A stretch of DNA of 64,000 nucleotides from Escherichia phage WPEC3: sequence record PV611058. One strand, given 5' to 3'. This document shows, piece after piece, positions 8,386-10,160 of the stretch (its first letter is position 1; the number at the start of each line of letters is the position of its first letter). The notes under the pieces are model-generated. The model saw only the letters and a program-made list of their open reading frames with translations, was not told the DNA's origin and searched no databases. A program made the translations under genes and the position numbers.

Positions 8386-8586
8386 TTATATAAAAAGTAT
8401 CAAGTTTAATACTAAAAATACAATGATAGCAATATGATAGACATACATCCACTTATTGTGTCCATGTTTATTACCATTCCTGAATTCTCGGTATAAACAT
8501 TTAGTGTGATTGTATAACACCACACAAATAAACACAACTATGAAACAAAAAATCCACTCGTAAATTATGTATGCCATCAGATACAC
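8386..8586 (-). CDS. small membrane protein (two predicted TM helices)
   Basis: 66 aa, two long hydrophobic stretches. Confidence 0.45.
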   Translation of the reverse strand: MYLMAYIIYEWIFCFIVVFICVVLYNHTKCLYREFRNGNKHGHNKWMYVYHIAIIVFLVLNLILFI

Positions 8587-8608
8587 TCTCTCTTTATAAT
8601 TATTATTC

Positions 8609-9202
8609 TCAGTATTTCAAAATATCAAACTCTGGACTAACACTTGTTACATTATCACTAACAATTTTGAAAATAGACTCAACACGTTCATGCAACTGAA
8701 CATTGGTTTCTTCTTGAACTTCAATATACGCTGACATGGATGCAATTGCATGATAAGTCCCACTTCCGACAGCAGTAATTTGTGTTTTAGGTTGCAGTAC
8801 TGAAAAGTCTTCTTGAACTTCATAAATCGTATGATTATGAAGAATAATGAACTGACCACCACCAACATCTTGTGATGCATCACGAGCACCCCATTCATCT
8901 TTAAACATTTGACGAATGATAGGAATAACTTTCAGTACTAGATACTGTGAAAAGGTTTCCCCTGCAACTTGTTCTGGTAGAGTTAGGTTGTAATTCAACA
9001 ACTGACCCATACGGAACGATGTAGTATACCCTAACGCCATTACTTCTTTAGTGCGAGTAAGACCATCCTCATTGAGTTTAATGAACTCTTTCTCAAACAC
9101 TTTAGGCTCAGTTTGAACTGCTTTTGTGAAACCATTGCTTCCTAATTTATCACCAGCGATGAAGGAAGATGTGCCATTTGTGTGAGCGATAATACAAGTC
9201 AT
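8609..9202 (-). CDS. HslV/proteasome-beta-like Ntn-hydrolase peptidase
   Basis: Starts MTCIIAHTNG...FIAGD (Thr at position 2, compare HslV MTTIVSV...IAGDG); AVGSGTYHAIA resembles HslV IAIGSGG; AAGGAG Shine-Dalgarno 7 nt upstream of ATG at 9200-9202. Confidence 0.5.
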   Translation of the reverse strand: MTCIIAHTNGTSSFIAGDKLGSNGFTKAVQTEPKVFEKEFIKLNEDGLTRTKEVMALGYTTSFRMGQLLNYNLTLPEQVAGETFSQYLVLKVIPIIRQMFKDEWGARDASQDVGGGQFIILHNHTIYEVQEDFSVLQPKTQITAVGSGTYHAIASMSAYIEVQEETNVQLHERVESIFKIVSDNVTSVSPEFDILKY

Positions 9203-9459
9203 GAAATAACTCCTTGTGCAAAAAGTGCCGTATACAACCAGTATATCAGCAACCCTAGTGTAAGTAAACATGCTCCATAAGAAATTGATAGAACATAGTA
9301 AATTCCTGCTTCTAACTTGGATGCAAATTTGTGTGTACTGGAATCCATAAAACCACGTTTGTAGTCTTTATAGATGAAACATGTTAAAACTAATGTAATG
9401 CAATATACAATAGTTGTTGCATAAAAAACAAGAGATGTTAAGTTTTGTAAATTTGTCAT
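9199..9459 (-). CDS. membrane protein
   Basis: 86 aa with three hydrophobic segments; ATGA overlap with the HslV-like gene. Confidence 0.5.
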   Translation of the reverse strand: MTNLQNLTSLVFYATTIVYCITLVLTCFIYKDYKRGFMDSSTHKFASKLEAGIYYVLSISYGACLLTLGLLIYWLYTALFAQGVIS

Positions 9460-9551
9460 AGTTTATACACTCCTAGTGTATGTTAACTTATAACAAAGGA
9501 TGTACCACTTTATCATCCTCTTATTATAATATTATTATTTTGTATCTAAAA

Positions 9552-10160
9552 CTAATGAATGATACTACCTAATTCGAGTAACTGCTCTGGTGTAAGTCTC
9601 ACAACTTCATTACCACGAACCTTACTAACCTCCACTAACAATTCTGGAGGAATACCATTCGCTGCATATAACGCAAATAGAACACCAACCTTAGTTGATA
9701 GCTGTTCAGCAAAAATAGTCAATTGGCGAACTGTTATGTATGTGTCATCACTATTTCGTGCTTTACTTTCGATTGACACATTATGTAGACCTAGGATTGA
9801 GTCCTTCATCATGTATCTGTTTTCTATATTAGCACTAAAGAATGCGATAGTGCAAGAAGAATTACAATATCTTTCAACAATAATTGTTAAATTGTTATCA
9901 TTGACAAAATTTCCTAGTGCCACTCCCGCATCAAAATCACCACCTGGTGACGTAATGATGATAGTGTCAAATGGGTGTGTTTCTCTAAAAACCATCAAAC
10001 GGTTTACAGTATTTTCAGTTAAAGTTGAAATGAACTGAACTGTCTGTTTAGATTCATCATATCTAATGATACTTTTTCTTTCAACACCTGCACTTGCAGG
10101 AAAGTTAATTAAGAAAATAATAATAATAGATTGGATGATTTCTTTATATAATCGTACCAC
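9552..10160 (-). CDS. ClpP/S49-fold serine peptidase-like protein with N-terminal signal
   Basis: Hydrophobic N-terminus; ITSPGGDFDAGVALG resembles ClpP INSPGG...AG segment. Confidence 0.45.
   Translation of the reverse strand: MVRLYKEIIQSIIIIFLINFPASAGVERKSIIRYDESKQTVQFISTLTENTVNRLMVFRETHPFDTIIITSPGGDFDAGVALGNFVNDNNLTIIVERYCNSSCTIAFFSANIENRYMMKDSILGLHNVSIESKARNSDDTYITVRQLTIFAEQLSTKVGVLFALYAANGIPPELLVEVSKVRGNEVVRLTPEQLLELGSIIH

Follow-up and report, generated by a model that had tools for sequence, protein, structure and literature searches.

Two adjacent predicted peptidases, a putatively exported ClpP-like hydrolase and an HslV-like threonine peptidase, in an Asteriusvirus-type jumbo coliphage

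In an N-terminal nucleophile (Ntn) hydrolase that starts Met-Thr, the nucleophile must be a threonine with a free alpha-amino group; a cytoplasmic Met aminopeptidase is needed for this, and a signal peptide is excluded. The N-terminus of ClpP forms the axial loops to which ClpX or ClpA binds. The membrane proteases SppA (S49) and NfeD/1510-N use a Ser-Lys dyad. The group I proteasome-like families near BPH/HslV (PPH, AAH and CPH) occur in phages; they are described as compact bioinformatic families of unknown function, with neither propeptide nor C-terminal extension (Fuchs et al. 2021, PMC8665760). PPH was called «the first true viral member» (PMC8665760), and other jumbo-phage papers note «HslV without HslU» (PMC7823757). 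The present analysis concerns a stretch of 64,000 nucleotides of Escherichia phage WPEC3 (record PV611058), hereafter the window, and in it four genes of the minus strand (8386-10160) that encode a ClpP-like protein, an 86-aa membrane protein, an HslV-like protein and a smaller membrane protein.

A first-pass annotation had suggested that these genes could be a proteolytic system acting at the envelope and had compared them with the T4 repertoire. The comparisons reported here lead to another reading: the locus probably holds two functionally separate accessory peptidase genes, adjacent in a long early-type array of an Asteriusvirus-like jumbo coliphage. A single machine is argued against by two results: (i) the two peptidases have independent distributions and synteny; (ii) they are predicted in different compartments. 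The four open reading frames (ORFs) first described are all present, as follows:

9552-10160, minus strand: ClpP-like ORF, 202 aa, GTG start at 10160 behind AAGAGGG
10089-10160, minus strand: predicted signal peptide (aa 1-24) of the ClpP-like protein, n-region MVRLYKE, h-region IIQSIIIIFLINF (13 residues), c-region PASA followed by G
9199-9459, minus strand: 86-aa membrane protein ORF, ATG 9459 behind TAGGAG
8609-9202, minus strand: HslV-like ORF, 197 aa when read from MTCII (mechanical ORF extending back to 9271)
8386-8577, minus strand: small protein ORF with two transmembrane (TM) segments, 63 aa from ATG 8577 as in fEgEco12, 66 aa from GTG 8586

T4 was not a suitable frame of reference. 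Over 2.1 kb around the locus, the identity is 98-99% with Escherichia phages vB_Ec-M-J, WPEC5, Ecwhy_1, fEgEco12, EC.P1, Turkey3, CMSTMSU and TH47, all jumbo myoviruses of 350-386 kb; it is ~75% over ~59% of the stretch with PBECO4, phAPEC6, G17, slurp01 and other Asteriusvirus members. By this sequence identity, the window is assigned to an Asteriusvirus-type jumbo coliphage and not to a T4-type phage. These relatives already carry annotations. The fEgEco12 counterparts (g214-g217) are labelled «head maturation protease», hypothetical, «protease» and hypothetical, and the 202-aa gene has the first of these labels also in vB_Ec-M-J and WPEC5. In the RefSeq record of PBECO4, gp096 is «peptidase HslV family» and gp097 «protease». 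Annotated sequences 97-100% identical to the ClpP-like and HslV-like proteins have been deposited. Neither peptidase is thus without annotation in public phage records, and no new gene is added by the window. Sir2 begins 10 nt past the fourth ORF, NUDIX is next and PhoH comes later. Since these genes continue the array, the four genes are part of a long co-oriented array and not an isolated operon. No defence-system model was matched in a PADLOC scan of five proteins.

The HslV-like ORF matches phrog_1040 «peptidase HslV family» (E 2.6e-22). No Pfam family, Proteasome included, matches it at E<=1, and its scores for the NCBIfam HslV equivalogs TIGR03692 and PRK05456 (18.1 and 19.1 bits) are below the respective cutoffs of 157.75 and 137. 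Profiles were needed to place it, a single-sequence search of the Protein Data Bank (PDB) giving HslV only at E 0.15. The AlphaFold2 model has a predicted local distance difference test score (pLDDT) of 92.2 and a predicted template modelling score (pTM) of 0.88. With Foldseek, this model matches HslV at E 4e-10, and its template modelling score (TM-score) is 0.73-0.75 for BPH vs. 0.61-0.65 for HslV. At E<=0.001 the PDB matches number 813, and each of the best 50 of the 813 is HslV, BPH, proteasome beta or Anbu; the proteasome beta subunits matched are both bacterial and archaeal. The model helices (residues 63-72, 84-104, 149-166 and 170-184) may be read as H1-H4, two before and two after the central strands. 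The model thus points to a peptidase of Ntn/proteasome-beta fold, with four alpha-beta-beta-alpha layers, and the Ntn hydrolase first proposed at 8609-9202 stands.

Seventy-two homologues were found, and 34 were aligned, with identity down to 25%. In this alignment M1, T2, C3, D18, K34, Q67, G146, G148 and V188 are invariant, and the oxyanion Gly (G58) is conserved in at least 90% of the sequences. The MTC start is found in 72/72 homologues. The family profile puts T, D, K, G58 and GSG on MTT, AGD, KKV, AGF and GSG of solved HslV (E. coli for MTT, D and K). The identity to HslV is 16-20%. After the predicted removal of Met, the active site (Thr1, Asp17, Lys33, oxyanion Gly and Gly-Ser-Gly loop) would be intact; the anticipated Thr1 nucleophile agrees with the invariance of T2 and its alignment with MTT. 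The protein is 88% identical to its PBECO4 orthologue. Only the jumbo-phage clade has an insertion of 15 residues, at aa 37-54.

The start of this ORF is well marked: AAGGAG lies 7 nt ahead of ATG 9202, and the stop of the 86-aa ORF overlaps the start as ATGA at 9202-9199, also in PBECO4. The strong Shine-Dalgarno and the overlap noticed at first are thus both found. A reading of 220 aa from 9271, the extension of which would act as a propeptide, was rejected because AAGGAG serves ATG 9202 and all homologues are called from MTC. As read from 9202, the protein has no propeptide, and hydropathy gives no hydrophobic segment, signal or TM. For this reason, and because exposure of Thr1 needs the cytoplasmic Met aminopeptidase, the protein is predicted to be cytoplasmic. 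No AAA+ gene adjoins the HslV-like gene, and the annotation of the fEgEco12 stretch that matches the window (48 kb) lists none. In the proposed mechanism, the host Met aminopeptidase would remove Met1, and the exposed Thr1 would act together with Asp17 and Lys33, the Gly-Ser-Gly loop and the oxyanion Gly. If HslV and BPH are taken as models, the protein would probably form a stacked-ring, self-compartmentalised peptidase, with a role in host takeover or counter-defence rather than in morphogenesis.

The ClpP-like ORF matches phrog_26024 «protease» (E 4.7e-70) and just passes for Pfam CLP_protease (E 2.8e-4, 21.2 bits vs. a cutoff of 20.2). Its scores for the NCBIfam ClpP equivalogs are 19-22 bits vs. 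cutoffs of 228-251. A single-sequence PDB search gave nothing, and here also profiles were needed: the profile alignment puts S101 on the Ser of AASMG and H126 on the His of IMIH in solved ClpP. The motifs are TSPGGD (oxyanion), C99-x-S101-x-C103 (nucleophile) and His126. Close homologues are few and quickly diverging, the identity to the PBECO4 orthologue being 52%. The word-indexed search gave 10 relatives, and the exhaustive HMMER profile search 1,492 representative clusters at E<=0.001. In an alignment of 26 sequences, down to 20% identity, S71, G73, G74, C99, S101, C103 and H126 are invariant, and no Asp is conserved. Among 159 relatives, CxSxC is found in 157, a His 20-31 residues past the Ser in 150, an N-terminal hydrophobic segment in 128 and a lipobox-like motif in 33. 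Among the names listed for bacterial relatives, one is «ClpP class serine protease», and the rest are «hypothetical protein» or no name. In the literature searched, nothing relevant to COG3904 or to periplasmic phage proteins of ClpP type was found.

The signal peptide was judged by hydropathy and the -3/-1 rule. Hydropathy gives one N-terminal hydrophobic segment (aa 8-26), and small residues are found at both -3 and -1, so that cleavage is probably after Ala24 (ASA followed by G). LINFPASAG is invariant in 9 orthologues of 51-98% identity, and so are TSPGGDFD, Y-C-N-S and H126. As far as can be judged from these alignments, 9552-10160 encodes a ClpP-fold Ser/His hydrolase with a predicted classical signal peptide, which retains both the fold and the N-terminal signal initially assigned. 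Because the Cys pair is invariant in a protein predicted to be exported, C99 and C103 probably form a disulfide around the nucleophile elbow. The precursor would thus carry a Sec-type signal peptide, with cleavage probably as above, and the mature form would be a periplasmic, ATP-independent ClpP-fold serine hydrolase using Ser101 and His126 without the Asp of ClpP, its nucleophile bracketed by the CxSxC cysteines and their probable periplasmic disulfide. Its target may be an envelope or periplasmic one, from the host or from an incoming phage.

Records of 197 phages contain the HslV-like gene, mostly T5-like Epseptimavirus and relatives; the other carriers include Vibrio and Aeromonas phages, Geobacillus E3, jumbo phages of Xanthomonas and Ochrobactrum, and the Asteriusvirus group. 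The ClpP-like gene occurs in 47 records, i.e., Asteriusvirus-type phages, RaK2/K64-1-type Klebsiella phages, Xanthomonas XaC1 and Erwinia Hallingskeid. The two sets of carriers overlap in Asteriusvirus-type phages only. The co-occurrence that the first-pass annotation proposed to look for is therefore found in part: the four-gene order is kept in ~35 Asteriusvirus-type genomes, but elsewhere the peptidases are independent.

The gene order in relatives is as follows. RaK2 has dCMP deaminase, a structural protein, the ClpP-like ORF497, three large ORFs, an 88-aa ORF and Sir2, and no HslV-sized gene is present at this syntenic locus. L010, a metagenomic locus, has the ClpP-like gene, NMNAT/NUDIX, NAMPT, genes for 84-aa and 65-aa proteins, Acb1, Sir2, NUDIX and PhoH; no HslV-like gene is found in the 12.6 kb retrieved. 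Munch has an adenylyltransferase, a NAMPT-type phosphoribosyltransferase, a 79-aa membrane protein, the HslV-like protein, a 142-aa protein, an Acb1-like protein and Sir2; a search of its genome detected no homologue of the ClpP-like protein. In JNE01, an opposite-strand gene with Big_2 repeats (L005 2484-3392) lies between the 86-aa and HslV-like genes.

Sir2, NUDIX and PhoH are syntenic across the group (3494-8376, minus strand, in the window; also L004, L009, L010 and L012). In relatives, the interval from the ClpP-like gene to Sir2 holds NMNAT/NUDIX, NAMPT and Acb1 (anti-CBASS), inserts not present here in the window phage; we take the salvage genes NMNAT/NUDIX and NAMPT to be the published phage pathway for reconstitution of nicotinamide adenine dinucleotide (NAD). 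This region looks like a variable counter-defence/NAD island. The ClpP-like gene is a stable, fixed-position feature, i.e., a conserved gene of the RaK2/Asteriusvirus group belonging to a large uncharacterised, presumably exported family, and the HslV-like gene is a mobile accessory inside the variable island.

It can be noted that opposite-strand genes with Big_2/Ig-like repeats recur beside the ClpP-like gene (JNE01 as above, L009 4201-5883 and L010 4986-5891). PBECO4, phAPEC6 (gp347, detected in virions) and RaK2 (ORF496) also have an opposite-strand gene at this position, with an annotation as structural protein.

Concerning the small membrane proteins, hydropathy of the 86-aa protein gives a TM at 7-30 and a hydrophobic stretch of 30 residues at 53-82. 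The membrane protein first described is thus kept, with two TM helices, possibly three, in place of the three announced. The 63-aa protein has two TM segments, as first described. The basic loops YKDYKRGF (86-aa) and YREFRNG (63-aa) share the pattern Y-K/R-D/E-F/Y-K/R-x-G, and both are predicted cytoplasmic by the positive-inside rule. No Pfam or PHROG family was matched by the 86-aa protein, which is found in 35 phage records, all Asteriusvirus-type. When the profiles of the 86-aa and 63-aa families are compared (hhalign), the probability is 68% and E 5e-5, and their paralogy is possible on the basis of these profiles. The 65-aa protein of L010 has the same loop motif (YNDYKKGEF). The small membrane proteins are thus clade-specific neighbours, which persist at the locus in relatives without an HslV-like gene there.

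The regulatory elements noticed around the ClpP-like gene are:

10415-10440, minus strand: terminator-like hairpin, 11-bp stem and T run; it ends the upstream gene, just ahead of the promoter region, and is kept in fEgEco12 and JNE01
10296-10323, minus strand: sigma-70-like promoter match TAGACA-16-TGnTATAAT with an extended -10 TG, 11/12 positions, a pattern match only
10199-10227, minus strand: second promoter-like site with the -35 block TTGACTTAAG at 10227-10218, the block being invariant in the window, fEgEco12, PBECO4 and JNE01
9497-9528, minus strand: TATAAT at 9528-9523, then hairpin AGGATG/CATCCT at 9519-9497 and T-rich TTTGTTAT, located after the ClpP-like stop and before the 86-aa start; partly kept in PBECO4 and JNE01

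The promoter first placed at 10297-10323 corresponds to the second line. It is conserved among near-identical phages only, and promoter-like matches in this AT-rich region are barely enriched (22 vs. 15.5 +/- 4.8 in shuffles). The element at 9497-9528 is possibly an internal promoter or a weak terminator. Because of the conserved TTGACTTAAG block upstream and the TATAAT/hairpin downstream, the ClpP-like gene may be transcribed as a separate unit.

Some observations weigh against two fully separate genes. First, an unrelated small membrane protein gene is found just upstream of the HslV-like gene in EPS7 (T5-like) and in Munch. Second, the ATGA overlap of the 86-aa and HslV-like genes (window and PBECO4) and the order conserved in ~35 genomes make a coupling of the HslV-like protein to a membrane protein possible in the Asteriusvirus clade. 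A membrane-protein neighbour as a rule for the whole HslV-like family was rejected, since it is seen only in the Asteriusvirus clade, Munch, EPS7, L014 and L016; in six other lineages the immediate neighbours have no TM segment. Third, in the metagenomic loci L013 (2607-4049) and L014 (2603-4055), PhoH, a gene of the cytoplasmic ClpP-fold family phrog_1827 (nucleophile context CAST or CGSMC) and the HslV-like gene are found in this order, the ClpP-fold gene being 1-2 genes upstream; some pairing of ClpP-fold and HslV-like genes may thus be non-random. This adjacency is suggestive only, because phrog_1827 is widespread (1,611 phage records), adjoins PhoH in at least one listed phage and is ~27 kb from the HslV-like gene in T5-like SB6.

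Other explanations were considered. The HslV-like Thr peptidase could be an early-expressed self-compartmentalised effector that destroys host immune sensors or effectors, alone or by capturing host HslU, and that in Asteriusvirus is perhaps held at the inner membrane by the 86-aa protein. The neighbours of the gene in different phages (Acb1, NAMPT/NMNAT, Gad2 and ADP-ribosyltransferase, i.e., counter-defence or NAD-rescue functions) fit an anti-defence island, but this is guilt by association only, and the proposal is tentative and rather unlikely in this full form. A literature search found no experiment on phage proteasome-like peptidases, which are present in ~200 virulent phages with the Thr1/Asp17/Lys33 site intact.

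A related proposal is that the HslV-like protein serves as a surrogate core for host HslU (ClpY), giving a hybrid ATP-dependent protease that redirects host proteolysis; the phage ClpP at 13092-13787 might do likewise with host ClpX or ClpA. HslV is indeed the closest solved fold, the MT N-terminus without propeptide is as in HslV, the annotation of the region has no AAA+ unfoldase of the phage, and E. coli, the host, encodes hslVU. Nevertheless, the equivalog scores (18-19 bits vs. 137-158) and the low identity to HslV are unfavourable, the TM-score is higher to BPH, which is not known to have an ATPase partner, the insertion at aa 37-54 has a restricted distribution, and the family is also found in Geobacillus and Vibrio phages with other hosts. 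On balance a surrogate core is doubtful.

The envelope system first proposed has to be weighed in the same manner. The small membrane proteins would tether the HslV-like peptidase to the inner membrane, where it would cooperate across the membrane with the exported ClpP-like peptidase. The same strand, the tight spacing, the ATGA overlap and the order in ~35 genomes are in its favour, and so are the basic loop shared by both small proteins (conserved, predicted cytoplasmic) and the membrane protein genes that precede the HslV-like gene in EPS7 and Munch. However, in RaK2 and L010 the locus has retained the ClpP-like gene and small membrane proteins with no HslV-like gene there, a ClpP-like homologue was not detected in Munch, the insertion in JNE01 breaks the overlap, and in most other lineages the HslV-like gene has immediate neighbours without TM. 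Moreover, a TATAAT and a hairpin separate the ClpP-like and 86-aa genes, and the peptidases are independently distributed and predicted in different compartments. One envelope module is thus quite improbable.

Concerning morphogenesis, the phAPEC6 orthologues are gp345c (HslV-like) and gp346c (ClpP-like). Both are absent from the 62 proteins found in phAPEC6 virions by mass spectrometry, in which the neighbours gp347 and gp341c are present (PMC7247149). The prohead protease of this phage is the T4 gp21-type gp227c, beside the scaffold and major capsid genes (PMC7247149). That one or both peptidases are head-maturation (prohead) proteases, as the labels in fEgEco12, vB_Ec-M-J and WPEC5 and weak matches to ClpP-related prohead protease models would have it, is extremely improbable, because the predicted signal peptide of the ClpP-like protein is incompatible with action in a cytoplasmic prohead, and also in view of a gene position far from the structural module and among nucleotide-/NAD-metabolism genes, a score of 15.8 bits vs. 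a cutoff of 120 for NCBIfam Clp_rel_HeadMat, the absence of both orthologues from the virion and the role of gp227c in phAPEC6. These labels are most likely annotation transfer from ClpP-related PHROGs.

Two separate accessory peptidases, predicted in two compartments, remain the preferred reading, and this corrected picture matters, since the enzymes would be neither head-maturation proteases nor one envelope module. The exported CxSxC ClpP-fold family, with ~1,500 representative clusters, would be a type of periplasmic serine hydrolase not yet characterised, and RaK2-type jumbo phages also conserve it. If it is true that one of the phage peptidases redirects host proteolysis or removes immune proteins, it would constitute a new class of phage effector.

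Several other neighbourhoods of HslV-like genes deserve mention. In Aeromonas phage 2L372D (L006 3001-4454), two proteasome-like genes (183 aa and 294 aa) are adjacent; the 294-aa protein matches phrog_1040 (E 5e-51) and Pfam Proteasome (E 2e-5), and the pair might form a hetero-oligomeric phage proteasome-like particle. In L017 (3501-5718), the HslV-like gene has a head-module position, after terminase, portal and three small ORFs; a short overlap and a 555-aa protein with an ADP-ribosyltransferase-toxin domain follow. On the metagenomic contig L015 (529-2343), an FtsH-like gene (604 aa, Peptidase_M41 and a weak AAA/Torsin match) lies ~1.2 kb upstream of the HslV-like gene. In L014, a gene with a Gad2 (anti-Gabija) domain is found one gene further downstream. 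In Vibrio phage 3.058.O (L007 1498-1995), a polypeptide deformylase gene lies ~1 kb upstream; deformylation precedes the Met removal that exposes Thr1, but this proximity may be a coincidence.

The separate canonical ClpP of the first-pass annotation is also found:

13092-13787, minus strand: canonical cytoplasmic ClpP homologue, 231 aa, Ser-His-Asp

It matches Pfam CLP_protease (E 1.3e-41) and is aligned to solved ClpP (E 3e-36) with GYAASMG, CHQ and DRD, i.e., Ser, His and Asp. Since the annotation of the corresponding 48 kb in fEgEco12 shows no ATPase like ClpX or ClpA, this phage ClpP may use host unfoldases. The PBECO4 RefSeq record labels its homologue «head maturation protease», and phAPEC6 has a separate gp21-type prohead protease.

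An assembly artefact must be mentioned inside the Sir2 gene (window 6626-7920). The Illumina TruSeq adapter AGATCGGAAGAGCACACGTCTGAACTCCAGTCAC is found twice (~7321-7354 and ~7786-7819), with poly-C/poly-G runs of 60-130 nt, and the flank 6626-6700 is repeated at 7845-7920. The artefact adds ~1.45 kb to the window with reference to fEgEco12. It includes a foreign coding fragment at ~6700-7140, which may be T4-portal-like. The long poly-Pro/poly-Gly «ORFs» at 7035-8376 are not genes.

The comparison with known systems can be given as follows. With reference to ClpP (MEROPS S14), the exported protein has a predicted signal peptide in place of axial loops, no conserved Asp, CxSxC instead of AASMG and a predicted ATP-free compartment, and its scores are far below the equivalog cutoffs. 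It differs from SppA and NfeD/1510-N in that their Ser-Lys dyad is not found, His126 being invariant in the 26-sequence alignment, and in that structural scores are below those to ClpP; it is moreover a single small domain, which would have no membrane anchor once the signal is cleaved. The phrog_1827 «ATP-dependent protease» of T5-like phages, ICP1 and other phages is likewise a divergent ClpP-fold protein with a C-x-S nucleophile context and a weak reciprocal match (E 0.0027), but it has no signal peptide, and its 1611 phage records compare with 47 for the exported type. The HslV-like protein shares with HslV the Ntn sandwich, the Met-Thr start without propeptide, the aligned Thr/Asp/Lys/Gly-Ser-Gly and a compact length of ~180-200 aa. 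It differs from HslV by the invariant Cys3 where solved HslV has Thr, by the absence of an adjacent hslU, by the 16-20% identity and scores below the equivalog cutoffs, and by the 15-residue insertion of its clade. Its model has the best TM-scores with BPH (0.73-0.75). PPH, by its description, has ~140 aa without helix H2 (PMC8665760), whereas the phage protein has 197 aa and four predicted helices.

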